Shown here piece by piece: positions 11,895 to 39,710 of a stretch of DNA of 64,000 nt. Source of the stretch: an uncultured Candidatus Saccharibacteria bacterium (lineage in GTDB: Bacteria > Patescibacteriota > Minisyncoccia > Phycocordibacterales > UBA2163). The notes under the pieces were generated by a model. It worked only from the letters and a program-made list of their open reading frames with translations. It was not told the origin of the DNA and ran no database searches. Positions within the stretch are counted from its first letter, which is position 1. Every line of letters begins with the position of its first letter. The stretch lies in contig CAZVGL010000002.1 of NCBI GenBank assembly GCA_964626705.1, positions 386-64,385 of the forward strand, written 5' to 3'. The translations under genes were made by a program, and so were the position numbers.

Positions 11895-13832
11895 ATGTCA
11901 AAAATTTTAGGAATAGATTTAGGAACAACAAACTCAGCAATGGCTGTAGTCGAGGGAGGTGAGCCAACAATAATAGAGAATGCAGAAGGTGTACGAACAA
12001 CACCGTCTATTGTTGCTATTTCAAAAACAAATGAAAGGCTTGCTGGACTTCTAGCAAAGAGACAGGCTGTGACAAACCCTAAAAATACTATATTTGGCAT
12101 AAAGCGTTACGTTGGACATATGTTTAATGACGCAGAAATACAAAAAGATGAAAAAACTTCTCCATTTGATATTGCGAAAGGTTCTGACGGAGGTGTTTTA
12201 GTAAAACTTGGAGATAAGGAATATCGCCCAGAAGAAGTGTCTGCTATGATACTCCAAAAACTTAAGAACGATGCGGAGGCACGGCTTGGAGAAAAGATAA
12301 CTGAAGCTGTTATAACGGTACCTGCATATTTTAATGACTCACAAAGAAAAGCTACAAAAGATGCTGGTAAGATCGCAGGGCTTGAAGTAAAAAGAATTAT
12401 AAACGAACCTACAGCAGCTGCACTTGCATATGGTTTTGCAAAAAAGAAAGACGAGAAGATCGTGGTATTTGACTTCGGTGGTGGTACTTTTGACGTATCA
12501 GTACTTGAAGTTGGGGATGACGTAATAGAAGTAAAATCAACAGACGGTGACTCACACATGGGAGGGCGTGACATTGATCAAAAGATAATAAAGTGGATAG
12601 CAGATGAATTTAAGAAAGAAAGCGGTATCGATGTATCTACAGATCCACTTGCGATACAGAGACTTGACGAAGCAGCAGAAAAAGCAAAGCTTGAACTTTC
12701 TTCAACTACAGAAACAGAGATAAACATACCGTTTATTACATCAGATGCATCTGGTCCGAAACACTTACTACTTAAAATGACACGTGCGACTCTAGAAGAA
12801 CTTGCTAGAGAATTTATCGACCGCTCAATAGAAATCACAAAGCGTGCAGTAGAAGCTTCACCTTTTAGCACAAGTGATATAAATGAAGTTATCTTAGTAG
12901 GAGGGCAGACTCGTATGCCTGCTATCTCTAACGCTGTAAAAGAATTCTTCGGAAAAGAACCAAATAAATCTATCAACCCTGACGAAGTAGTGGCACTTGG
13001 TGCTGCTATTCAAGCTGGAATAATGCAAGGAGACGTAAAAGATATACTACTTCTAGATGTTATCCCTCTTTCACTCGGCATAGAAACACTTGGATCTGTA
13101 GCTACTAAACTTATAGAGAAAAACTCTACTATCCCTACATCAAAGTCACAGACATTTTCTACAGCAGCTGACAATCAAACATCTGTGGAGATCCATGTAG
13201 TTCAAGGAGAACGAGCTATGGCTACAGATAATAAATCTCTTGGTAAATTTATCTTGGACGGTGTACCGCCAGCACCAAGAGGTGTACCTCAGGTAGAAGT
13301 ATCTTTCGACGTAGATGCAAATGGTATTTTAAATGTAAAAGCAAAAGATAAAGCAAGTGGAAAAGAACAATCTATAAAGATCGAAGCAAGCTCAGGACTT
13401 TCAGAAGAAGATATTGAGAAAATGAAAAAAGATGCAGAGATAAATGAGAGTGAGGATGCAAAGAAAAAAGAAGCAGTGGATGCAAGAAATCTCTCAGAGC
13501 AGCTTGTATACACAGCCGAGAAAGCACTTAAAGATGCAGAAGGTAAGATAGAAGAAGCTCTCAAAACTTCAGTACAAGCTAAGATAGACGAACTTAAAAA
13601 AGTAAAAGACGGTACTGATACAGAAGCTATAAAATCAGCTTCAGAAGCCCTTTCAACAGAAATGCAAAAGATAGGCGAAGCAATGGCCAAAGCAGCTCCA
13701 CAAGAGCCAGCAGAGGGCACAGAAGGGCAAGCAGGGGAACAAAAAGAAGGTGCTGAAGGTAATGTAAGAGACGCAGAGTTTGAAGAGAAGAAAGATGACA
13801 CTCCACCAGCAGAAGAACCGAAAACAGAGTAA
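11895..13832 (+). CDS. dnaK: molecular chaperone DnaK (Hsp70)
   Basis: 645 aa with Hsp70 signatures [16 protein letters not shown] and [11 protein letters not shown]. Confidence 0.97.
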
Positions 13833-13854
13833 ATAATAATTAAAACCACAAAAA

Positions 13855-13892
13855 AAACAAACGGCTCAAGTCGATGAGCCGTTTGTTTTTTT
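13855..13892 (+). terminator. rho-independent terminator after dnaK
   Basis: 11-bp stem caaacggctca / tgagccgtttg followed by a T7 run. Confidence 0.6.
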
Positions 13893-13932
13893 ACTTGTTT
13901 TTTGATGAAAATGCGGTAAAATAGTGTTAATT

Positions 13933-15015
13933 ATGGCAAGAGACTACTATCAAGTTTTGGGAGTGGACAAGAAAGCAAGTGCTGACGAGGTAAAGAAAGC
14001 ATTCAGAAAACTTGCTCACAAATACCACCCCGACAAAAGTACTGGAGATGAAGCTAAGTTTAAAGAAATTAGCGAAGCTTATGGTGTACTTTCAAATGAC
14101 AAGAAACGGCAAGAATATGATGCATACGGAAGAGTGTTTAATGAAGGCAGTGGCGGCGCCGGGCAAGGTTTTGGTGGATTCTCTGACGGACAGGGTTTTG
14201 ATTTCTCTGGGTTTGCTGACCAAGGTTTCGACATGGGTGACATATTCGGTGGACTAGGGGATATCTTTGGCGGAAGAGGAAGACAACAAACAAAGCGCGG
14301 AAGAGATATTTCTATTGATCTTGAAGTACCGTTTAAAGACGCTATCTTTGGTACAGAAAGAAAAGTACTTTTGACTAAAGTATCAGAATGTAAAACATGT
14401 ACTGGGAGTGGTGCTAAAGAAGGGACAGAGATGGAAACATGTAAAAACTGTAACGGCAAAGGTAAGATACATGAGACTAAGAATTCGATCCTAGGAACTA
14501 TACAAAGTGTACGAGCATGTGATAATTGTTTCGGTACAGGCAAAGTACCAAAAGAAAAATGTAAAGATTGTAAAGGTTTAGGTGTCGCGCGCAAAGAAGA
14601 GGAGATTTCTATTTCAATACCAGCAGGAGTAGACAACGGTGAGATGATACGTCTCTCAGGTGGTGGGGAAGCGGTAGCAGGAGGTATTGCAGGAGACCTA
14701 TACATAAAACTTCATATAAGCCCTGACCCAGTATTTAGAAAAGAAGGAAACAACCTTTCAATGATACTAAATGTAAAGCTTACAGACGCACTTTTGGGTA
14801 GCACATATACAATCTCAACACTTGACGGCGACATTGATATTAAGATACCAGCTGGAGTGTCATTTGGTGAGATACTTCGCGTAGGAGGTAAAGGAGTACC
14901 AACAAGCAAAAAGAGTCGTGGAGACTTACTTGTAAAGATAAATATCACTCTACCAAACAAACTCTCACGTAGTACTAAAAAATTAGTTGAGGAAATGAAA
15001 AAAGAGGGGATTTAA
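13933..15015 (+). CDS. dnaJ: molecular chaperone DnaJ
   Basis: J-domain with HPD (KYHPDK), a Gly/Phe-rich linker and four CxxCxGxG zinc-finger repeats. ATG at 13933 ([11 protein letters not shown]) is preferred over the upstream GTG. Confidence 0.9.
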
Positions 15016-15016
15016 T

Positions 15017-15046
15017 CAACAGTTTACTTTTGTAAACTGTTTTTTA
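15017..15046 (+). terminator. rho-independent terminator after dnaJ
   Basis: Stem aacagtttac / gtaaactgtt with a T-run. It is immediately followed by TATAAT (15051-15056) positioned 8 nt upstream of the next ATG. Confidence 0.55.
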
Positions 15047-15064
15047 GTATTATAATATTACTAT

Positions 15065-15598
15065 ATGAATTCAGTACAAAATTTATTTGCAAGCTCTACA
15101 GGGAGCGCATTAGAGACAGTTACAAACTTGTCGCTTGATACAATTATTTTAATTGTTATCTTTTTCTTATTCTTTATATACGGATTTAAATTTGGTAAGC
15201 GTAAGATCATATCTTTAATGCTTTCTTTGTATGCTTCGATCCCTATTGTACTTTTTTTCCCGTACTTACAGAAAATCGCATTCTTTGGCAACACTGAGAA
15301 GGCGGTACTATATTCACAGATTGGGCTTTTTGTATTGGTGATAATTCTTATAAATGTAGTGCTAAGCAGAATAGTGAGTTTCGAACTCTACCACAGAGGC
15401 TTAAGAAGGCTAATAGAAAATGGTTTTCTTGCAGCAGCTTCTGGCGGACTTCTTATAGCTATTTCATATCATATAATAAAAATATCAGAACTATATGATT
15501 TCGCGAGACCGATAGATGCATTATTTGCATCTACAACGCTCTTTTTCTGGTGGCTCATAGCACCACTTGTAGTTGTTTTCTTTACGACAAGAAGATGA
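15065..15598 (+). CDS. small polytopic membrane protein, possibly CvpA-like
   Basis: 177 aa with 4-5 predicted TM helices. Family assignment is tentative. Confidence 0.4.
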   Translation: MNSVQNLFASSTGSALETVTNLSLDTIILIVIFFLFFIYGFKFGKRKIISLMLSLYASIPIVLFFPYLQKIAFFGNTEKAVLYSQIGLFVLVIILINVVLSRIVSFELYHRGLRRLIENGFLAAASGGLLIAISYHIIKISELYDFARPIDALFASTTLFFWWLIAPLVVVFFTTRR

Positions 15599-15614: not shown

Positions 15615-17216
15615 ATGAATAAAAAGACCCAAAAGACAAAAGGGGCTAAAAATACAGTGATTTTGACTGGGAATGACCTTACGCCAGATGAAATATACAG
15701 GATCACAGAAGATCCAAAAATACAGGTAGTACTATCTCCAAAGTCATTAATAAAAGTAAGACAATCAAAAAAGTTTCTAGACAAGAAGGTTGCCACAACT
15801 GTAATATATGGGATCACTACTGGCTTTGGACCTATGGCATCACATATCATAGGTAAAAATCAATTACACGAACTTCAATATAACTTAGTGCGCTCACATG
15901 CAGTAGGATTGGGAGATCCTATAGAAGATAGATTTGTTCTTGCTGCTATGGTAGTAAGATTAAACACTCTCGTAAAAGGATACTCTGGTGTGTCAGAAGA
16001 CTTAATAGAACAATTAGCTTTTTTTATAAATAAAAGAATCTTACCTGTAATCCCAGAACATGGTTCAGTAGGAACAAGCGGTGATTTAGTACAGCTCGCC
16101 CACATCGCTATTACTTTAATAGGAGAAGGGGAAGTGGTGTTTGAAGGCAAACGAGAAAATACAGCAAACGTACTTAAAAGATTAAAAAGAAAACCTCATA
16201 CACTTGAACCGAAAGAAGGACTTGCTCTTATAAACGGCACATCTGTTATGTCTGGTATAGCAGCACTTATTGTCGACGACACAGAAAGATTACTTTCTGT
16301 GATATCACGCTCAAGTGCTTTAGCACTTGAGCTTATAAATGGTTTAAACGATGCTTTATCTGCAGAACTACATGCATTACGTCCACATGATGGTCAAAAA
16401 AAGATAGCGTCCACACTTCGTAAATTACTAGCTTCATCTACTCTTCTACATGATAGAAAACAGCTTCAATCTAGAGTAAATGTCATAGACAATGTTTATG
16501 TTACTCCAGAGCATATCCAAGATGTATATTCGTTCCGCTGTGTTGCGCAGATCTTAGGTCCAGCACTTGATATATATAAAAAAACTAAAAAAGATGTAGA
16601 AATAGAGATCAATTCAGTTACTGATAACCCCATCATAGATGTCAAAAAACAAATCTTCCTTCACGGCGGAAACTTCCATGGAGACTATATAGCAACAGCT
16701 GTTGATCAATTAAAGATAAGTATAGTAAAAATGACAATACTTTCAGAAAGAAGAATAAACTTTTTCTTAAACAGAAACGTAAACCAGTTCTTTCCACCAT
16801 TTTTAAATCTAAATCAACCAGGCCTTACACTTGCATTACAAGGTCTACAGTTTGTAGCTACATCAACAACTGCCCAAAGCCAGTCTCTTGCATTCCCTCA
16901 TTCTACACACTCTATCTCCACAAATGCAGACAATCAAGATGTAGTAAGTATGGGTACAGACGCTGCGCTTATTACAAGCAAAGCAATAAAGAATGCGTAC
17001 ACAGTACTTTCTGTAGAATATGCAACGCTTGCACAGGCTGTGGATCATTTAAATGTTTCAAACAAACTCTCACCAGCATCAAAGCTATTGTTCAAAAAGA
17101 CTAGAGGAATAGTACCTAAAATAGTAGAGGACAGAACTCTTACGAAAGAACTAACGAAACTTATTAATATGTTAGAAAAAGATGACGACCTAATACTTTC
17201 TTTCGAAGGTAACTAA
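15615..17216 (+). CDS. MIO-dependent aromatic amino acid ammonia-lyase/aminomutase (HAL/PAL/TAL family)
   Basis: N-terminal YGITTGFG block; MIO-forming tripeptide region GSVGTSGDLVQLAH (Thr-Ser-Gly where Ala-Ser-Gly is usual); full-length lyase-family similarity (about 530 aa). ATG at 15615 is preferred because the track start at 15573 overlaps the previous gene. Confidence 0.85.
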   Translation: MNKKTQKTKGAKNTVILTGNDLTPDEIYRITEDPKIQVVLSPKSLIKVRQSKKFLDKKVATTVIYGITTGFGPMASHIIGKNQLHELQYNLVRSHAVGLGDPIEDRFVLAAMVVRLNTLVKGYSGVSEDLIEQLAFFINKRILPVIPEHGSVGTSGDLVQLAHIAITLIGEGEVVFEGKRENTANVLKRLKRKPHTLEPKEGLALINGTSVMSGIAALIVDDTERLLSVISRSSALALELINGLNDALSAELHALRPHDGQKKIASTLRKLLASSTLLHDRKQLQSRVNVIDNVYVTPEHIQDVYSFRCVAQILGPALDIYKKTKKDVEIEINSVTDNPIIDVKKQIFLHGGNFHGDYIATAVDQLKISIVKMTILSERRINFFLNRNVNQFFPPFLNLNQPGLTLALQGLQFVATSTTAQSQSLAFPHSTHSISTNADNQDVVSMGTDAALITSKAIKNAYTVLSVEYATLAQAVDHLNVSNKLSPASKLLFKKTRGIVPKIVEDRTLTKELTKLINMLEKDDDLILSFEGN

Positions 17217-17220
17217 AAAC

Positions 17221-18768
17221 ATGTCAAAAGAAAAAGACATACTTAAACCATTAAAGTCGGTAGGAGAAACCTTTTCTCTACAAGACATGCTTTCTTTTGA
17301 CACAAAAGATTATATAAAGATGCTCCAAAATAAGGGCGAAGAATTTTGGATAAAAGAAGGAGAAAAGAAAGCCCTTAATCTTTTTAAAAAGGCTGCTAAA
17401 GACGTACCAGCATATAAAGAATTCCTTAAGGTACACAAGATCGACCCGACAAAGATCAAAACTATAAAAGACTTTAAAAATATTCCGATCACCACAAAAG
17501 AAAACTACATCAGTAAGTATCCTCTAGCGGACAGGAACTGGAATGGAAAACTAGAACACCTGAACATATTTGCCGTAAGCTCAGGAACAATAACTAAACC
17601 AACAATATGGCCTCGTGGGTCACTTCAAGAGTTTGAGTCAGCTATAACTCACGAAGCTCTCTTTAATGAATTGTATGAGGTTGATAAACATAAAACACTC
17701 ATAGCTATCGGGTTTCCGATGGGTGTATATATCTCTGGTATGGCTACAAGTATTCCAAGCTGGCTTATCGGAATAAAAAACCCAAGCCTTAACATACTTA
17801 CGATAGGAAACGACAAAGAGAAATTTTTAAATATTATCCCCCAACTACAAAAAGAGTACGAACAAATCCTATTTATTGGGCATCCGTTTTTTATTAAAGA
17901 TGTAATAGAGACTGGTAAAGATAGAAAGATAAAATGGGACAAAACTAAAGTAAAAATGATGTTTTGTAGCGAAGGCTTCAATGAAACATGGAGGTCGTAC
18001 TTAGCAAAACAAGTTAAAAGTGATAAAAAACTCGATATGTTTAATACTTACGGTTCATCTGAACTATTACTCATGGGTAATGAAACACCTAAGAGTGTCT
18101 TTATAAAACAGCTTGCTGAAAAGAAAAATAAAATTAGAGAGTCAGTATTTAAAAGCCCTTCTGTTCCAAATATATTTCAATATAATCCTATTAACCGCTA
18201 CATAGAGTCTGTAGATAATGACCTTATTTTTACAGCCTCAAGCGGTATACCGCTTATCCGATTTAGATTACATGACAACGGTCAGGTTATTTCAAATAAC
18301 GATATGGACGACCTTCTTACTAAGGAATGTCCGGAATGGAAAACGGAATTTAAAAAAATAAAATCAAAGAGTGCCTGGAATTTACCATTTGTTACATTAT
18401 ATGGAAGAAGCAATCAAGCGATGATCTTTTATGCAGCAAATATTTATATAGAAAACATTAATCAGGCGCTCGACCATAAACCTTTTTTAAGCAAGATTAC
18501 AGGGAAGTTTGTAATGGAAAAGAAATACTTAAAAAACATGGATCAATATCTTAATATATATATTGAGCTTGAGGAGTCTGCAGAAAAAGATAAAAAACTT
18601 GCAAAAGATATTCAAATAAAAATAGTTGATACTCTAAAAAAAGTTAACCTAGAATATGCAGATGCATCAGAGAAACTCAATAAAAACTTAGTGCCAAGGA
18701 TCGTCTTAAAACCTTACCAAGACAGGACGTATTTCAAGCTTGGGTTGAAACCAAAATATATTATATAA
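17221..18768 (+). CDS. adenylate-forming enzyme, PaaK / coenzyme F390 synthetase-like
   Basis: 515 aa. Contains an SSGTITKPTIWP AMP-binding P-loop-like motif of the type characteristic of phenylacetate-CoA ligase/F390 synthetase (SSGTTGKP). The C-terminal ~80 aa are an extension. Confidence 0.6.
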   Translation: MSKEKDILKPLKSVGETFSLQDMLSFDTKDYIKMLQNKGEEFWIKEGEKKALNLFKKAAKDVPAYKEFLKVHKIDPTKIKTIKDFKNIPITTKENYISKYPLADRNWNGKLEHLNIFAVSSGTITKPTIWPRGSLQEFESAITHEALFNELYEVDKHKTLIAIGFPMGVYISGMATSIPSWLIGIKNPSLNILTIGNDKEKFLNIIPQLQKEYEQILFIGHPFFIKDVIETGKDRKIKWDKTKVKMMFCSEGFNETWRSYLAKQVKSDKKLDMFNTYGSSELLLMGNETPKSVFIKQLAEKKNKIRESVFKSPSVPNIFQYNPINRYIESVDNDLIFTASSGIPLIRFRLHDNGQVISNNDMDDLLTKECPEWKTEFKKIKSKSAWNLPFVTLYGRSNQAMIFYAANIYIENINQALDHKPFLSKITGKFVMEKKYLKNMDQYLNIYIELEESAEKDKKLAKDIQIKIVDTLKKVNLEYADASEKLNKNLVPRIVLKPYQDRTYFKLGLKPKYII

Positions 18769-18775
18769 TAAACAA

Positions 18776-19963
18776 ATGTCAGATAAAATAAAACAATCTA
18801 TAGATAGTATTCTAGCAAAAGAAATTGAGTCAAAGCCGGTGTTTTTTAATCTAGCAGAATCAGAAGATCATAAAAGGCTAACCGCGCTTATATCTGAAGG
18901 AAAAGTTCAGCGTGTGTCAGACGACTATAGAGAACAGTTACTTGAATTGTTTGGTATAAACAATCCTTCATCTGTTCACGCTGAAGGGTTTGATGAGAAA
19001 TTTGAAGAACATCTAAAAGAGTCCGAAGAAAAAACACCCCTTTGGCAACAGGGTGTGTGGGTATACTTCCCATGGAGTTCAACCTTAACGCACATACTAC
19101 CTGAAGATGATTTTCAATTAGTAAGGACTGCTAGGAATCAGAACTTAATAAGTAAAGAGGAACAAAGTAAATTTTATAATACAACTGTAGGTATTGGGGG
19201 ACTGAGTGTTGGTTCAAGTGTTGCTTTAGGTCTTGTACTACAAGGAGGTGCCAAACATATAAAGTTTGCAGATATGGACAGACTTGCACTATCAAATACA
19301 AATAGGATTATTTCAGGAGTAGACAATCTTGGCATATTAAAAGTTGATATGACGGCACGCAAAATCTATGAGATCAATCCTTATGCACAAATAGAATTAT
19401 TTCCGGAAGGGTTAGGTAAGGAAAATATAGAAAAATTCTTTGAAGGACTTGATATTGTTATCGACGAATTGGACAATCTGGCTATTAAATATCTTATAAG
19501 AGAACAAGCGAAGAAAAATAGGATAGCAGTCGTGATGGCAGCTGACAATGGAGACAATGCTGTGGTGGATGTAGAGCGATACGATCTTGATGAAAATACA
19601 CCGTTTTTCCATGGAAGGATGGGTAATGTGTCTTATGAAGGACTTCTAGGTTTAGATAAGTTTGGTATAGGGAAGATGATTACGAAGCACGTTGGTCCTG
19701 AGAATGTGACGGAAAGGATGCAGCAATCTCTTTTTGAGATGGGGAAGACTATTGTCTCTTGGCCACAGCTCGGTGGTGCTGCAATGATAAACGGCGCAGC
19801 GGTTGCATACTGTGTTCGCAAGATTCTAAATGGACAGCCGTTAGAGGACAATAGAGCGCTTGTATCGCTGGATGAGAAGCTAGTACCAGACTATAATTCA
19901 ACCGAAAAAGTAGGGGAACGAAAACAAATAGCCGATTCATTTAAAAAAATATTTGGACTGTAA
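18776..19963 (+). CDS. ThiF/MoeB/E1-like adenylyltransferase with ~130-aa N-terminal extension
   Basis: Rossmann/E1 block TVGIGGLSVGSSVALGLVLQGGAKHIKFADMDRLALSNTNR matching the ThiF pattern G.GG.GS...D.D..SN..R. The preceding ~130 aa are not recognised. Confidence 0.7.
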   Translation: MSDKIKQSIDSILAKEIESKPVFFNLAESEDHKRLTALISEGKVQRVSDDYREQLLELFGINNPSSVHAEGFDEKFEEHLKESEEKTPLWQQGVWVYFPWSSTLTHILPEDDFQLVRTARNQNLISKEEQSKFYNTTVGIGGLSVGSSVALGLVLQGGAKHIKFADMDRLALSNTNRIISGVDNLGILKVDMTARKIYEINPYAQIELFPEGLGKENIEKFFEGLDIVIDELDNLAIKYLIREQAKKNRIAVVMAADNGDNAVVDVERYDLDENTPFFHGRMGNVSYEGLLGLDKFGIGKMITKHVGPENVTERMQQSLFEMGKTIVSWPQLGGAAMINGAAVAYCVRKILNGQPLEDNRALVSLDEKLVPDYNSTEKVGERKQIADSFKKIFGL

Positions 19964-19966
19964 GAT

Positions 19967-21022
19967 ATGCAAAACGACATAGAAAAAATCATAAAGGACG
20001 GTGTACTGGCTCCATCTGGTGAAAATGCACAACCATGGAGATTTATCGTGGAAGATAATAAAATCCATATATTTAATAAACCAGAAGTTGATCAATCTTT
20101 ATATAACTTTAAACAAAGAGGATCTTATATTGCACATGGTGCACTGATTGAAAACATTACTATAAGCTCGTCTAGATATGGATACAAAACAAATATTAAA
20201 TTATTCCCAGAAGAAGCTACTGCAAACCTTGTAGCTATTCTAACCTTAGAAAAAGCAGGTACGGAAGAAGATTCACTCTATAAGCATATCGAAAATAGAC
20301 ATACTAACAGAAAGTCATATGATGGACGAAAATTATCTAATGAACAAAAGGCGCAATTAATTAATACTGTCAAAGAGATCGACTCTGTAGAATTAGAAAT
20401 TATAGACGAAACAAAATCATTGAATATCTTAGGAGAAGCTTTGGCTGTAAATGAATTAATTCTTTTTAGCAACAAAAAGCTTCATGATTTTTTTTATGAT
20501 CATATTTTGTGGAAAGAAGACGATCAAGATAAGGCAAAAGGTTTTTATGTAAAAACTCTTGAGTTTCTTCCGCACCAACTTAAGGCAGTTAAATTATTCA
20601 AAAGCTGGTTTTTATTAAATATTTTCAATAAATTAATAAAAGTTGCGAACAAAATAGCAAAAGAAAATGCGGAGAAATATACAAAATCAGGAACCTTGAT
20701 TGCCGTTATAGTTAATGGAAATTCTAATTCTGACTTTATAAGAAAAGGAAGGGCTATGCAAAGAGTATGGCTTAAAGCAACAGAACTTGGCTTAAGTATG
20801 CACCCTTGTACTGGTACAGTATTTCTTATGGACAGAATAAAAGGCGGAGATAACAAATCTTTTTCAACCGTGCATATTGATATAATAAAAAATGCTTATA
20901 ACAACATATCCAAAATATTTAATACCGATAAAAAGTCTGCACCACTACTTTTTAGGATTGGATATGCAGACACACCTAGCGCTTGGTCACTTAGACTTAA
21001 TCCAGATATTGTTTATAAGTAA
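19967..21022 (+). CDS. nitroreductase-family FMN oxidoreductase, extended SagB/McbC-like form
   Basis: N-terminal APSGENAQPWRF (nitroreductase P-S-x-x-N-x-Q-P-W motif) and a C-terminal GRAMQRVWLKATELGLSMHP block. At 351 aa it is longer than the ~200-aa simple nitroreductases. Confidence 0.65.
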   Translation: MQNDIEKIIKDGVLAPSGENAQPWRFIVEDNKIHIFNKPEVDQSLYNFKQRGSYIAHGALIENITISSSRYGYKTNIKLFPEEATANLVAILTLEKAGTEEDSLYKHIENRHTNRKSYDGRKLSNEQKAQLINTVKEIDSVELEIIDETKSLNILGEALAVNELILFSNKKLHDFFYDHILWKEDDQDKAKGFYVKTLEFLPHQLKAVKLFKSWFLLNIFNKLIKVANKIAKENAEKYTKSGTLIAVIVNGNSNSDFIRKGRAMQRVWLKATELGLSMHPCTGTVFLMDRIKGGDNKSFSTVHIDIIKNAYNNISKIFNTDKKSAPLLFRIGYADTPSAWSLRLNPDIVYK

Positions 21023-21045
21023 TAATAGTATTATCATATAGTTAT

Positions 21046-22674
21046 ATGAACGTCTTAAGTAATTTAGATCTACTTTCTGTTGGACTAACTATTGCAGGTA
21101 TTGGAATACTTGGATTTGTTATATATTTTAATAATCCAAAAAGTATTACTAGCCGCTCATTTTTATTTTTTTCTATAACCTCCATACTTTGGGGTATAGC
21201 AAATTATATAAATTATAAATTTACTTCAGAAACTGCCATTCTTTGGACATTAAGAATAGCTATCTTTCTTGCTGTATGGCATGCTTTTTCTCTTTTTCAA
21301 CTATTATATGTTTTTCCAAAAAAAGAATTTAAATTTTCTAAATTATATAAATACACCTTAGTTCCATTAGTATCTATAACCTCCCTTATTCTTCTTACAC
21401 CAATAGCTTTTGTAAAAGTGACTAAATTAGCAACACCTGGAGAGGTGTCTATCGTTGCAAAAGGTCCTGGCATGATTGCATTTATTTTATTAATTATCTT
21501 TTTAGTATCAACAGCATTCTATGTTCTATTAAAGAAAATAAATAATGCAAAAGATAACGCAAAAACCCAAGCAACAATGGTATTTATAGGATTACTTATA
21601 ACGTTTGCATTAATTATAACCTTTAACTTCTTGCTACCAGCCTTATTTGATATTGTAAAGTTAATACCACTGGGTGCTATTTTTATACTGCCATTTATAT
21701 TATTTACATCGTACGCAATACTTAAGCATAAGTTATTTGATATCAAGGTCATAACCACTGCTATCATGGCATTTGTACTTTCTATTGTTACATTTCTTGA
21801 AATCATATTTTCAGAAGGACTTGACCAAATAATTTTTAGAAGTAGTGTATTTATTCTTGTACTTGTATTTAGTGTTTTTCTTCTTAAAAGTGTCCGTAAA
21901 GAAGTAGTGCAAAGGCAACAAATCGAAAAGCTTGCAGATACTTTAGCGAAAGCGAATGTGCGCCTGAAAGAACTTGATAAAATGAAGTCTGAGTTTGTTT
22001 CTTTTGCAACACATCAGATACGCGCACCTATAACTGCTATAAAAGGTTACACTTCTTTAATACTTGAAGGTTCATATGGGGAAGTGTCCAGTGAGATGAA
22101 AGAAGCTATTGATAGAATATACAAATCCAGCCAATCTCTAGCTATTGTTGTAGAAGATTATCTAAACATATCTCGCATTGAGATGGGTAGAATGAAATAT
22201 AACTTTAAAGTCTTAGATTTTGGTAAACTCATTCGTGAAATTGCTGAAGAACTAAAACCTACTGTATTAAAAGCAAAGCTTGAGATATTAATAGACATTG
22301 ATGACAGTAAAGAATACAAAGCAAAGATGGACGAGGGTAAGATGAGGCAGGTTGTTATAAACTTGATAGACAATGCAGTCAAATATACAAAAAAAGGGTC
22401 AATAAAAATATCTCTATCCAAAGACGAAAAGAGAAATAAACTGATCGCACAAATCTCAGATACAGGTATTGGTATTGAAAAAGAAACAATGCCGAAACTC
22501 TTCAAGAAATTCTCACGTGCTAAAGATGCGAATGATACAAACATACATGGTACAGGTGTCGGACTTTACATTGCTAAAGTTATGGCAGAAGCACATGACG
22601 GTGGTCGTATTTGGGCAGAGTCAGAAGGAGAAGGGAAGGGCTCACAGTTTTATATAGAAGTGGACAGTATTTAA
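21046..22674 (+). CDS. sensor histidine kinase with N-terminal 7TM-type membrane sensor domain
   Basis: About 280 aa with 7 predicted TM helices, then a coiled-coil. H-box FVSFATHQIRAPITAIKGY, N/G boxes NLIDNAVKYT and GTGVGLYIAKVMAEAHDGGRIWAESEGEGKGSQF. No adjacent response regulator. Confidence 0.85.
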   Translation: MNVLSNLDLLSVGLTIAGIGILGFVIYFNNPKSITSRSFLFFSITSILWGIANYINYKFTSETAILWTLRIAIFLAVWHAFSLFQLLYVFPKKEFKFSKLYKYTLVPLVSITSLILLTPIAFVKVTKLATPGEVSIVAKGPGMIAFILLIIFLVSTAFYVLLKKINNAKDNAKTQATMVFIGLLITFALIITFNFLLPALFDIVKLIPLGAIFILPFILFTSYAILKHKLFDIKVITTAIMAFVLSIVTFLEIIFSEGLDQIIFRSSVFILVLVFSVFLLKSVRKEVVQRQQIEKLADTLAKANVRLKELDKMKSEFVSFATHQIRAPITAIKGYTSLILEGSYGEVSSEMKEAIDRIYKSSQSLAIVVEDYLNISRIEMGRMKYNFKVLDFGKLIREIAEELKPTVLKAKLEILIDIDDSKEYKAKMDEGKMRQVVINLIDNAVKYTKKGSIKISLSKDEKRNKLIAQISDTGIGIEKETMPKLFKKFSRAKDANDTNIHGTGVGLYIAKVMAEAHDGGRIWAESEGEGKGSQFYIEVDSI

Positions 22675-22704
22675 ATAGTGCATGATAAAATCAAATATTT
22701 AATT

Positions 22705-23274
22705 ATGAAAAATATTCAAACAATCACTGAGAAATATTTTCAAATGTTTCCAGAAGATAAGAGGAGTCTAGAACACCTAACAAAACAATTAAAAAAAAGT
22801 GAGGATATTTTTAATCGCAAAAACTTTACAGGCCATGTAGTTGCAAATTCATTAGTTTTGAATTCTAAAAACGAAGTTCTGACTATATTTCACAATAAGC
22901 TAAAGATGTACATACAGCCCGGTGGGCATGTAGACCAGACAGATGAATTAGTTGTAGATGCAACCAGAAGAGAGCTTGCGGAAGAAACAGGACTAAAGGA
23001 TGTAGACTTGGATGAATGGCATAAAGAGACAAGTATTCCTATTTTTATTGAATCTCACTTAATACCGCAAAACGTTCAAAAAGAGGAGGAGGAACATTAT
23101 CATCATGATTTGATGTATATATTTAAAACAAATACAAACGATGTCGAACTACAACCAGAAGAAGTGTCGGACTATAAGTGGATTAACATAAACAAGATAT
23201 TAGAAGATGATCCAGATTCATTTATTGGCAAATCACTTACAAGAATGCTTGAACTAAATATTATAAAAATATGA
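22705..23274 (+). CDS. Nudix hydrolase
   Basis: Nudix box GGHVDQTDELVVDATRRELAEETGL (GX5EX7REUXEEXGU). ATG at 22705; an upstream in-frame GTG at 22678 is also possible. Confidence 0.8.
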   Translation: MKNIQTITEKYFQMFPEDKRSLEHLTKQLKKSEDIFNRKNFTGHVVANSLVLNSKNEVLTIFHNKLKMYIQPGGHVDQTDELVVDATRRELAEETGLKDVDLDEWHKETSIPIFIESHLIPQNVQKEEEEHYHHDLMYIFKTNTNDVELQPEEVSDYKWININKILEDDPDSFIGKSLTRMLELNIIKI

Positions 23275-23891
23275 CAAAAAATATAGAAGTTGAGGTACGT
23301 GGTATTTTAACTAAAAAAGATTACGACCAACTTAATAAAAAACTTCTTAAAGACGGTAAATTTATCTCACATAAAGACAGGGTCTTAATAGATTATTCTA
23401 CATTCATCAAAAAACAGGGTATCAAAAATAGAACTAAGGATATTAGACTAAGGGTTACAAACAAAATACCAGAGATTATAATTAAGTTAGGAAAATGGGG
23501 AGGCAACGACCAGCGTGAAGAACTATCTGTTCTAACAAAAAAAGGAAGTTTTGACACTTTGGTCAAAGCTTTTAATATTCTTGGCTATAGTAAGGGAATG
23601 CTATGTGTTCGTGACATTAAAGCATACAAATATAAAGGTGCAGAATTTGCCGTAGTAAGTATTCCTGGACATGGTTATTTTTATGAAGCTGAAAAGATTG
23701 TAAGTAACAGTAAGAAAGAAAAAGAACAAGCCAGCTTGAAGCTTGAAAAAATATGTAGTGAACTAAACCTTGAAATACTTTCAGACAAAGATCACTGTGA
23801 TTATGTAGAAAAGTTGAATAAAGAAATCAATGAAGTCTTCGATTTTAAGAACTATACAGACGATTACTTTAAAAATAGATTTAATCTTTAA
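23271..23891 (+). CDS. hypothetical protein, possible CYTH (triphosphate tunnel metalloenzyme)-like domain
   Basis: N-terminal IEVEVRGIL resembles the CYTH ExExK/R signature and the size (206 aa) is compatible. Overlaps the Nudix stop by ATGA. Weak call. Confidence 0.35.
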   Translation: MTKNIEVEVRGILTKKDYDQLNKKLLKDGKFISHKDRVLIDYSTFIKKQGIKNRTKDIRLRVTNKIPEIIIKLGKWGGNDQREELSVLTKKGSFDTLVKAFNILGYSKGMLCVRDIKAYKYKGAEFAVVSIPGHGYFYEAEKIVSNSKKEKEQASLKLEKICSELNLEILSDKDHCDYVEKLNKEINEVFDFKNYTDDYFKNRFNL

Positions 23892-38573: not shown

Positions 38574-39063
38574 AATATTGTATTTTATATTGTGCGACAC
38601 TAAAATAGGCGATTGGTCTAAGAGGGTATAGAAGAGTGAGAAAAGAGTCTCAAAATTGATCTGTGAGGTATTTTTATAGGTACTATGGTACCAGTAGGTA
38701 TTGGTCGCAAGCTTGTTATTTTTAGAGAAAATTTAAAAAGTGGTTTTTTATTTAAAAGTAATAAAATATATTTTATAGAGAATTTAGAAAAAGAGATGGG
38801 TGAAGACATTTTTGGAAAACAGTAGTATCAAACTAAGTAGCACACATCTGATACAACTTAACGCACACAGAGTCGTGTACGCGTTTTTATTTCTATTTAA
38901 AGGGAAGTAGCTTAAGAGGAATCCCACCCTTTGTTTTAATATCAATGTCGGAAAAGATATATTGTGCGACGTATATATAAAATAAACATCTCGCCAAAAC
39001 GATACCTTCCCTTTTAAAACATATCTAAATTATTTTTATTTATGTGTGGTCAATTATTTAATA

Positions 39064-39106
39064 CAAAACCACCCGCGTGTCTTACGACACGCGGGTGGTT
39101 TTTATT
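39064..39106. terminator. bidirectional stem-loop terminator
   Basis: 13-bp perfect stem ccacccgcgtgtc / gacacgcgggtgg flanked by A- and T-runs. It is 3' of the minus-strand gene ending at 39113. Confidence 0.65.
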
Positions 39107-39112
39107 TTTAAA

Positions 39113-39499
39113 TTATCTCATGGCGACATGGTTCTCAACACCCCAACATTTGGAAGATGCAAGCCACGGTGTAGTCCCCTCTTTTTCGAAGAGATACTCC
39201 GCATAGTTCATATTACCTTCAAGCGTATATAAATTGATTCCAAGCCTATCAGCGGTCTTGCCGTGGTAATACTCATTGATCTGCATTACACCGACGTCAG
39301 ACTTATTAACCTTGCCTCTTATTACATCGCCATCTTCGCCAAATTGTCGGAAGCTTGATTCGCATCCGGCAACTTCTGCCATGACGGGATAATTTTCAAA
39401 GTGCTCACGCACGTACTCCTCAACAGTTGGAGATTCCATGAATCTCGTATTATCTGTATGAGCCACACTTCCCTGCTGTTCTATTATAGAAGCTTCCAC
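39113..39499 (-). CDS. lytic transglycosylase-like (SLT/lysozyme-like) protein
   Basis: E-S catalytic block (AGCESSFRQ) and GVMQINEYYHG resemble family-1 lytic transglycosylase motifs. The annotated start is a GTG. An in-frame upstream signal-peptide-like extension lacks a canonical start. Confidence 0.6.
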   Translation of the reverse strand: MEASIIEQQGSVAHTDNTRFMESPTVEEYVREHFENYPVMAEVAGCESSFRQFGEDGDVIRGKVNKSDVGVMQINEYYHGKTADRLGINLYTLEGNMNYAEYLFEKEGTTPWLASSKCWGVENHVAMR

Positions 39500-39664
39500 A
39501 AGTGGAGCTCCGGTAGTCGAACTAAGAAATGCTAAGATTAATATTGTTATTTCTATGATAAGCGTTTTTTATTACTGTTAATATCTCTGTCTTTTGACAA
39601 AAATAAAAAGCTGACCTAAGCCAACTTCTTCATCTGTCATAACATATTGTTAACATCTTGTCAA

Positions 39665-39692
39665 GCCCATCAGGAAAGTCTTCCTGATGGGC
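39665..39692 (-). terminator. stem-loop 3' of the minus-strand gene 39711..40259
   Basis: 12-bp perfect inverted repeat gcccatcaggaa / ttcctgatgggc with loop agtc. Confidence 0.45.
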
Positions 39693-39710
39693 GAAATACT
39701 GCTCTTCTAT

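Follow-up and report, generated by a model that had tools for sequence, protein, structure and literature searches.

What does a row of seven tightly packed, co-directional genes do in the small genome of a patescibacterium, one of the bacteria of the candidate phyla radiation (CPR)? The genes lie in a 64,000-nucleotide stretch of contig CAZVGL010000002.1 (assembly GCA_964626705.1, positions 386 to 64,385, forward strand) from an uncultured Candidatus Saccharibacteria bacterium. This stretch, hereafter the window, has a G+C content of ~36%, and its nearest protein relatives are found in Patescibacteria metagenome-assembled genomes. An earlier note had described the seven genes as one unit that would deaminate an aromatic amino acid, adenylate the product and modify it further, with a kinase involved. 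That general idea is upheld in outline by the family and linkage evidence, yet the conserved block comprises five genes rather than seven: an MIO (4-methylideneimidazole-5-one) lyase (g1), a PaaK-fold ligase (g2), a ThiF-like cyclase (g3), an Acg-type flavin-dependent oxidase (g4) and a seven-transmembrane (7TM) sensor histidine kinase (g5). The two genes that follow, encoding a Nudix hydrolase (g6) and a CYTH protein (g7), are linked to this block in none of 44 related loci and are unrelated neighbors. Judging from sequence comparisons, we hold with roughly even confidence that the g1-g5 cassette is a non-canonical route to an oxazolone (azlactone) or N-acyl-dehydroamino acid joined to a dedicated sensor kinase. 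As such, it is a candidate chemical signalling system in CPR bacteria.

The evidence that the five genes belong together comes from their relatives. Loci were anchored on g2, which gave 45 from species-representative genomes; two of these were identical, leaving 44, and the linkage counts use only loci whose contig extends far enough. The loci are labelled as Doudna-, Kaiser- and Lloydbacteria, Paceibacterota, Parcubacteria group, Patescibacteria group and ‘uncultured Candidatus Saccharibacteria’ bins, and one fetched locus is a high-GC Bryobacteraceae contig. The MIO gene lies directly upstream of the ligase in 41 of the 43 evaluable loci. The ThiF gene is directly downstream of the ligase in 33 of 39, with three more having it elsewhere in the locus, and the nitroreductase gene is present in 29 of 38 (five more elsewhere). 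The 7TM kinase is found downstream of the ligase in 27 of 33 evaluable loci and elsewhere in one more. The same succession, g1-g2-g3-g4-g5, is seen again in dozens of divergent genomes. Since cassette proteins share just ~30-70% identity with those of the window and the flanking genes differ, the gene order must be kept by selection. The linkage of MIO, PaaK-fold, ThiF, nitroreductase and kinase genes, as opposed to their being scattered in relatives, is therefore borne out across the 44 loci. Some cassettes carry additional genes. A class I S-adenosylmethionine (SAM) methyltransferase is encoded between the nitroreductase and the kinase in four loci (L013, at 13676-14395; L017; L025; L038), and a second methyltransferase-like protein, an ATP-grasp ligase and a TrmB regulator occur occasionally.

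A few loci are arranged differently. Two of them (L034:7791-12042 and L049:8886-13150) have a reduced form made up of nitroreductase, ligase and kinase with no MIO or ELFV dehydrogenase gene nearby, and in L049 a ThiF gene is located ~6.4 kb upstream of this reduced cassette. Another (L027:15203-17484; JBBTRX010000009.1) has a second ligase and ThiF pair ~3.7 kb downstream of a complete MIO-ligase-ThiF set, a duplication of the ligase-cyclase pair alone. The non-CPR Bryobacteraceae locus (L028; DATDHK010000034.1; 60% G+C) contains an MIO gene followed by a g2-like region, detected by tblastn, that is broken into short open reading frames (ORFs), and it has no ThiF, nitroreductase or kinase gene. 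This ligase-like region may be a pseudogene or the remnant of a horizontal transfer.

The chemistry of the cassette is best recognized in g3 (18776-19963, + strand) and g4 (19967-21022, + strand), which begins 3 nt after g3. By homology, these two genes are a split oxazolone synthetase of the TrzS/Rv1355c, OxzB and TyzB/TyzC kind. The g3 protein matches Pfam ThiF (E = 6e-23), and against the NCBIfam model of the Rv1355c family (NF005901) it scores 324 bits (E = 1.4e-96) over model positions 8-342 of 722. The g4 protein scores 194 bits (E = 5e-57) against the same model over positions 375-713. Because the two matches tile one model, g3 and g4 represent the halves of one protein type, with g3 as the predicted ATP-dependent cyclase (N-terminal half) and g4 as the predicted desaturase (C-terminal half). 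As a rough sum, the split scores amount to 518 bits (324 + 194). In three CPR loci (L008, L018 and L022), the two genes are fused to encode proteins of 726-747 aa that score 500.1, 485.1 and 474.2 bits, the curated equivalog cut-off being 476. The extra N-terminal domain that had been attributed to the E1-like protein turns out to be normal Rv1355c-family architecture, as the match starts at g3 residue 16. The g4 protein also matches PRK14851 (4.5e-64) and the Acg family (2e-41); it has the nitroreductase fold previously assigned to it, yet is of the Acg/FDO type and not of the SagB type.

The motifs of both proteins are well preserved. In 39 CPR homologs, g3 retains the Gly-rich loop GxGxxG together with AD.D...SN.NR and DE.D, and 35 homologs of g4 keep the flavin mononucleotide (FMN) motifs APS.EN.QPW and R.TNR. 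With the ATP-loop and Asp motifs and the oxidase motifs conserved, both proteins look catalytically competent. Rv1355c has been identified as TrzS, which makes N-acyl tryptazolones together with the N-acyltransferase TrzA (Rv1356c); its ThiF domain cyclizes N-acyl-tryptophan in an ATP-dependent reaction and its flavin-dependent oxidase domain carries out an O2-dependent desaturation (PMC12856293). The same cyclase/desaturase chemistry was first demonstrated for OxzB of Pseudoalteromonas rubra (bioRxiv 10.1101/2020.06.11.147165) and has been shown for the separate Mycobacterium tuberculosis proteins TyzB and TyzC (PMC10404671). The substrates of this family are N-acyl-Trp or N-acyl-Tyr, and its chemistry was shown in vitro.

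The gene most relevant to how such an N-acyl amino acid might be supplied is g2 (17221-18768, + strand). Its protein has no Pfam match, and its NCBIfam matches to PaaK (3.9e-13) and FlxY (2e-10) are weak and far under the cut-offs, at 48.7 bits against 646 for the PaaK equivalog and 40 against 520 for FlxY. No paa genes were found in its context. An AlphaFold model built on 21 homologs (pLDDT 89) has PaaK1 as its top PDB match in Foldseek (E = 5e-21; TM 0.65/0.77) and also matches BT_0428, with further structural matches to NatL2, AjiA1 and ClxA (E ~1e-13 to 1e-17). The modeled fold is PaaK-like, and the protein appears to be a member of the superfamily only, not a PaaK equivalog. An exhaustive profile search found 856 cluster representatives of its family at E <= 1e-30; g2 belongs to a distinct ligase family of ~515 aa. 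Four of the best 150 representatives are fusion proteins: a ligase-ThiF (P0283), a ThiF-ligase (P0296), an ELFV amino-acid dehydrogenase-ligase whose dehydrogenase part most resembles ScyB, a tryptophan dehydrogenase, at 277 bits (P0356), and a dehydrogenase-ligase-ThiF (P0270). The natural fusions of ligase and ThiF indicate that the ligase passes its product directly to the cyclase.

We propose that g2 encodes an aryl-acid:amino-acid ligase. Adenylate formation is suggested by the fold and motifs; the formation of the amide is the least secure step of the model. This role is assigned because no acyltransferase accompanies the cassette, because ligase and ThiF occur as fusions, and because NatL2 and ClxA provide a precedent. 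Regarding the first of these, an N-acyltransferase is missing from the Pfam list for the window neighborhood, from the families conserved across the 44 loci and from the variant cassettes described below. As for the precedent, NatL2 (PMC7204872) and ClxA (PMC12519233) are PaaK-family enzymes in which an aryl-adenylate is coupled to a second small molecule without coenzyme A (CoA).

The variant cassettes are those in which the ligase is joined to the dehydrogenase. Their order is nitroreductase, dehydrogenase-ligase with or without a fused ThiF, in some cases a separate ThiF, alpha/beta-hydrolase and HisKA_7TM kinase. The hydrolase gene lies between ThiF and the kinase in L052 (11732-12607) and L054 (11839-12711), and its product could open an oxazolone ring to give an N-acyl-dehydroamino acid. 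No ELFV dehydrogenase was found in the 44 MIO-type loci. Because the cassettes that hold these fusions retain the nitroreductase and the HisKA_7TM kinase, the first enzyme appears to be an interchangeable amino-acid deaminator, with MIO lyases yielding an aryl-acrylate and dehydrogenases an arylpyruvate, and the kinase an integral partner.

For g1 (15615-17216, + strand, with an alternative TTG start at 15573), membership in the MIO family is plain (Pfam Lyase_aromatic, E = 6.7e-156), and what has to be asked is which amino acid it uses. Among NCBIfam models, FlxA, the tyrosine ammonia-lyase of the flexirubin pathway, comes first (581 bits against a cut-off of 700), followed by the histidine ammonia-lyase (HAL) models (456 and 444 bits, cut-offs 524 and 539) and the tyrosine 2,3-aminomutase (TAM) model (412 bits, cut-off 501). 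In the PDB, 2ohy (SgTAM, a tyrosine aminomutase; E = 6.8e-93) is nearest, and the nearest solved structures are SgTAM and the phenylalanine aminomutase AdmH. In an alignment of 42 CPR homologs with Pseudomonas putida HAL (its sequence checked against 1gkm) and SgTAM, the MIO triad Thr-Ser-Gly is invariant among the CPR proteins, as are the catalytic Tyr65, His95, Asn207, Tyr305 and Arg308. His95 corresponds to the phenol-binding His93 of SgTAM. The position of the imidazole-binding Glu414 of HAL is taken by Gln441, likewise invariant as Gln in the 42 homologs. With Gln at this position and tyrosine enzymes as the nearest relatives, histidine is an unlikely substrate, and tyrosine is our best guess from the residues compared. 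The earlier choice of an aromatic amino acid or histidine is thereby narrowed to its aromatic half. A histidine ammonia-lyase of a hut pathway was considered and rejected on the same Gln for Glu414, on the HAL scores below their cut-offs and on the absence of hut genes from the neighborhood Pfam list. The S-H ‘selectivity switch’ was also dismissed as evidence for HAL, as the same S-H motif is present in SgTAM.

The last member of the cassette, g5 (21046-22674, + strand), contains the Pfam domains HisKA_7TM, HisKA and HATPase_c, and its kinase domains are complete. The kinase of the dehydrogenase-type cassettes aligns with g5 over almost its full length, membrane domain included (33% identity, E = 3e-85). 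A single-domain CheY-like receiver (Pfam E = 2.4e-19) is encoded in the displayed neighborhood of 14 related loci, and in 17 anywhere in the fetched loci. The description of g5 as an orphan kinase needs correcting in that the kinase is no incidental neighbor: it is co-conserved even in the variant cassette with a different first enzyme, and 14 loci encode this receiver.

Taken in gene order, the proposed pathway would run as follows. The g1 enzyme would deaminate an aromatic amino acid, tyrosine being the likeliest, and so yield an aryl-acrylate such as 4-coumarate. The g2 enzyme would adenylate this acid to an aryl-acryloyl-AMP and then directly acylate an amino acid at its alpha-amino group. 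The product would be an N-(arylacryloyl)-amino acid, and the step would stand in for the acyl-CoA-dependent N-acyltransferase of the known oxazolone clusters. As expected from homology to TrzS, TyzB/TyzC and OxzB, g3 would then adenylate the carboxylate and close the oxazol-5(4H)-one ring, and g4 would introduce the alpha,beta double bond to produce a 4-arylidene oxazolone. A ring-opened N-acyl-dehydroamino acid of the stieleriacine type is a possible end product, with which the hydrolase of the variant cassettes would fit. The g5 kinase, to judge from its co-conservation, would detect the hydrophobic, hydrolytically labile product or a related cue, and would signal via the single-domain CheY-like receiver that is encoded beside the cassette in many relatives and not in the window. 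A role of oxazolones as signals is suspected by the authors of the known systems (PMC12856293; bioRxiv 10.1101/2020.06.11.147165).

Several observations weigh against this proposal. For g1, every NCBIfam score is under its equivalog cut-off, the second phenol-binding residue of SgTAM (Tyr415) is replaced by Phe, and lyase and aminomutase activity are inseparable by sequence. The g2 protein is most similar to CoA ligases. The desaturation catalyzed by TrzS requires O2, and many CPR bacteria live in anoxic settings. The cassette itself is not uniform, as L034 and L049 have no MIO gene nearby and the nitroreductase gene is displaced in L011 and L014. Finally, the adjacency of the kinase is no proof that it binds the product, and a search with a profile of the cassette-linked CheY family found no receiver domain or response regulator in the 64-kb window.

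These points leave room for other explanations, two of which would change a single component of the pathway. In one, which we consider rather unlikely, g2 is an ordinary aryl-CoA ligase similar to FlxY or PaaK, and an unlinked N-acyltransferase moves the aryl-acryloyl group to the amino acid, with the same end chemistry. The nearest structures and models are indeed CoA ligases (PaaK1, BT_0428 and FlxY), and all known oxazolone clusters use acyl-CoA with an acyltransferase. However, an acyltransferase is not conserved in the 44 loci or the variant cassettes, the ligase-ThiF fusions without an intervening transferase point to a direct hand-over, and CoA-independent ligases exist in the PaaK family. 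In the other, what the kinase senses would be an external cue (stress, the host surface or an amino acid, for example), and its tie to the pathway would be no more than regulation or a shared operon. To this we assign a small but appreciable chance, and the control of the pathway by a co-transcribed kinase, as suggested in the earlier note, survives as one option within it, the linkage of the kinase itself having been confirmed. The position of the kinase at the end of the operon and a receiver partner that is a stand-alone CheY-like domain without DNA-binding output are compatible with an external cue, and ligand information for HisKA_7TM is nonexistent. On the other hand, the linkage of the kinase survives both the swap of the first enzyme and gene rearrangement, a pattern that is expected of a synthase-receptor pair without being decisive. 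A more speculative idea about the kinase, and a long shot in our estimation, starts from the likeness of an azlactone to the chromophore of GFP and from its electrophilic nature. The product might be captured covalently by the 7TM kinase or serve as its light- or redox-sensitive chromophore, or might acylate a target on the host surface, in place of acting as a freely diffusing signal. By analogy, the logic would resemble that of the tyrosine ammonia-lyase and ligase pair that builds the chromophore of photoactive yellow protein. The tyrazolones and tryptazolones known so far show absorption at 360-400 nm and break down with nucleophiles, and acid and methanol destroy oxazolones (PMC12856293), but no invariant Cys or Lys that could be a covalent attachment site was seen in the kinase membrane domain in a rough alignment. 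If true, this would represent a new self-made chromophore and receptor, or covalent contact signalling, in ultra-small episymbiotic bacteria.

The remaining explanations would give the genes another purpose altogether. In TOMM (thiazole/oxazole-modified microcin) clusters, an FMN dehydrogenase accompanies the E1-like protein, and most ThiF-like enzymes act on proteins, peptides or tRNA. It is thus conceivable, if distinctly improbable, that g3 and g4 act on a macromolecule in the manner of RiPP (peptide made by ribosomes and modified after translation)/TOMM or ThiS/MccB systems, with the lyase and ligase supplying a group for the C-terminus of a peptide or protein. We rejected a TOMM or RiPP assignment, as no YcaO is present in the neighborhood Pfam list and no conserved small ORF of at least 50 aa was found in or beside the cassette, in which the g1-g5 gaps are at most 23 nt. 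Clustering did yield small ORF families; they lie on the opposite strand inside large conserved genes and are read as antisense shadows. In addition, the fused CPR g3-g4 orthologs reach equivalog-level scores to TrzS, a small-molecule enzyme. Even less can be said for a seven-gene pathway in which the Nudix and CYTH proteins process adenylate or pyrophosphate by-products. This very improbable explanation has in its favor the tight spacing and the lack of a predicted terminator in the window, and is countered by the absence of both genes from the related cassettes and by the broad conservation of the CYTH family in many other contexts. It is hardly credible that the genes serve to break down aromatic amino acids or histidine, or to scavenge nitrogen from them, in the manner of hut or paa. 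An ammonia-lyase followed by an acid-activating ligase is the opening logic of several degradation pathways, yet genes for urocanase, imidazolonepropionase, ring oxidation and beta-oxidation were not found, the HAL signature is absent, and the ThiF and FDO proteins come from a biosynthetic family. The view that the locus is not hut, not paa and not TOMM hence agrees with the residue, score and neighborhood gene evidence.

At the level of the genes themselves, all seven co-directional ORFs were confirmed on the + strand, and public contigs identical to the window yield the same genes in independent gene calls. The family assignments made for them likewise hold in profile searches, supplemented by structure models for g2 and g7. 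Downstream of the cassette, g6 (22678-23274, + strand, with an alternative ATG at 22705) matches Pfam NUDIX (E = 7.8e-12). The g7 protein (23271-23891, + strand), a CYTH/triphosphate-tunnel metalloenzyme, scores 17.8 bits against Pfam CYTH, below the threshold of 23.2; its model (pLDDT 92) matches the triphosphate-tunnel/CYTH structures 1yem and 7nsd (TM 0.65/0.79), and its N-terminal signature is ExExR in place of ExExK. A search for g7 homologs found 304 at E <= 0.001, with the 120 listed sharing 52-62% identity; some carry PF01928 and a few are from archaeal bins labelled DPANN. Its family is conserved very widely in CPR bacteria and occurs in many other contexts; the protein is not part of the cassette.

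The packing of the genes is as tight as described, with gaps of 4, 7, 3, 23 and 3 (or 30) nt from g1 to g6 followed by a 4-nt overlap, and a consensus scan found zero terminator-like hairpins between the seven genes. A terminator-like hairpin after dnaJ (15018-15041, + strand), a 10-bp stem followed by a T-run that is a match to the consensus pattern only, is the likely upstream boundary of the transcription unit. Between dnaK and dnaJ there is a perfect 18-bp bidirectional terminator-like hairpin flanked by A-runs and T-runs (13851-13892). The other + strand matches are a weak one at 15548-15565, where the upstream membrane-protein ORF has its 3′ end, and another weak one, at 23544-23573, that lies inside a gene. 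This upstream ORF (15065-15598, + strand) encodes a 177-aa multi-pass membrane protein that ends 16 nt upstream of g1 and has zero matches in Pfam, NCBIfam and PADLOC. Homologs are located directly upstream of the MIO gene in five other loci (L007, L008, L016, L022 and L038), with dnaJ just upstream in four of them and the contig ending in the fifth. The protein is missing from most cassettes and may be an accessory first gene of the transcript.

Two further surveys concern the region as a whole. A role in anti-phage defence was examined with the PADLOC models and rejected: g3 has only generic E1 Rossmann matches of at most 32 bits, and no match was obtained for g1, g2, g4, g6, g7 or the upstream membrane protein. 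The ATPase region of g5 has two partial matches (37 and 34 bits) to the candidate-system model PDC-M43B. No tRNA gene, riboswitch or other Rfam match is present in the whole 64-kb window. At ~38600-39700, the gene orientation flips from + to - and the cumulative GC skew turns over.

With its chemical core known, the locus is less mysterious than it first seemed, and it is more interesting as a conserved, phylum-wide cassette with a predicted product and receptor. The cyclase/oxidase core of g3 and g4 has been a characterized family since 2021. In the literature searched, we did not find a description of the acyl-donor arm (an MIO lyase or ELFV dehydrogenase with the distinct PaaK-fold ligase), of the constant 7TM-kinase linkage or of the distribution in Patescibacteria, and the searches turned up no relevant connection of Patescibacteria with oxazolones, MIO lyases or this set of genes. 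The discovery of oxazolone natural products goes back no further than 2021, and the authors who described them leave the physiological role explicitly open (PMC12856293; bioRxiv 10.1101/2020.06.11.147165). Oxazolone-forming enzymes tied to a membrane sensor kinase across a whole radiation would be the strongest genomic hint so far of a signal role, in bacteria that have tiny genomes and in which hardly any chemical signalling or secondary metabolism has been recognized. A second suggestion from the cassette is a CoA- and lipid-independent route to N-acyl amino acid precursors, made from amino acids and ATP alone, which fits organisms without fatty-acid metabolism. Heterologous expression offers a way to test the proposal, given the small size and predicted solubility of the four enzymes; possible gains are new biocatalysts for azlactones and a starting point for learning how CPR bacteria perceive one another or their hosts.

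Among known systems, CqsA and CqsS form a gene pair of an autoinducer synthase and a membrane sensor kinase. The cassette likewise appears to place the biosynthesis of a hydrophobic small molecule beside a polytopic histidine kinase that may sense it, with no sequence relationship between the two systems. The TOMM proteins SagBCD share with the cassette the combination of an E1-like protein and an FMN-dependent dehydrogenase; the cassette has neither YcaO nor a precursor peptide, and its nitroreductase differs in type from SagB. The FlxA/FlxY pair, which makes the flexirubin starter, shows the same pairing of lyase then ligase and contains the best named NCBIfam relatives of g1 and g2. Both scores are nevertheless sub-cut-off, there are no polyketide or flexirubin genes, and g2 is ~90 aa longer and in a family of its own. 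NatL2, AjiA1 and ClxA of the benzoxazole pathways have the PaaK fold in common with g2 at an identity of ~14-16%. They activate an aryl acid as its adenylate and join it, free of CoA, to another small molecule, and their acceptor is an aminophenol, not an amino acid.

The absence of a characterized operon, as claimed at the outset, holds in the literature searched for the five-gene combination but not for its parts, as g3 and g4 belong to the published oxazolone synthetase family. OxzAB of P. rubra and TyzACB of M. tuberculosis follow the same cyclase/desaturase logic, with TyzB and TyzC separate like g3 and g4. The NasY-ThiF-nitroreductase clusters of Stieleria, which produce stieleriacines (N-acyl-dehydrotyrosine; PMC12479983), add a methyltransferase, as do some CPR cassettes. 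All three differ from the cassette in relying on fatty acyl donors and an N-acyl amino acid synthase and in lacking a linked sensor kinase. The closest comparison is with TrzAS (Rv1356c-Rv1355c) of M. tuberculosis, M. smegmatis and Rhodococcus jostii RHA1 (PMC12856293), whose family score is reached by CPR orthologs, some of them fused like TrzS. In the window, the two domains are separate genes and there is no TrzA-type N-acyltransferase; the cassette has instead an MIO lyase, a PaaK-fold ligase and a 7TM histidine kinase. Its acyl group is probably aromatic and derived from an amino acid, in contrast to the short fatty acyl-CoA used by TrzAS.

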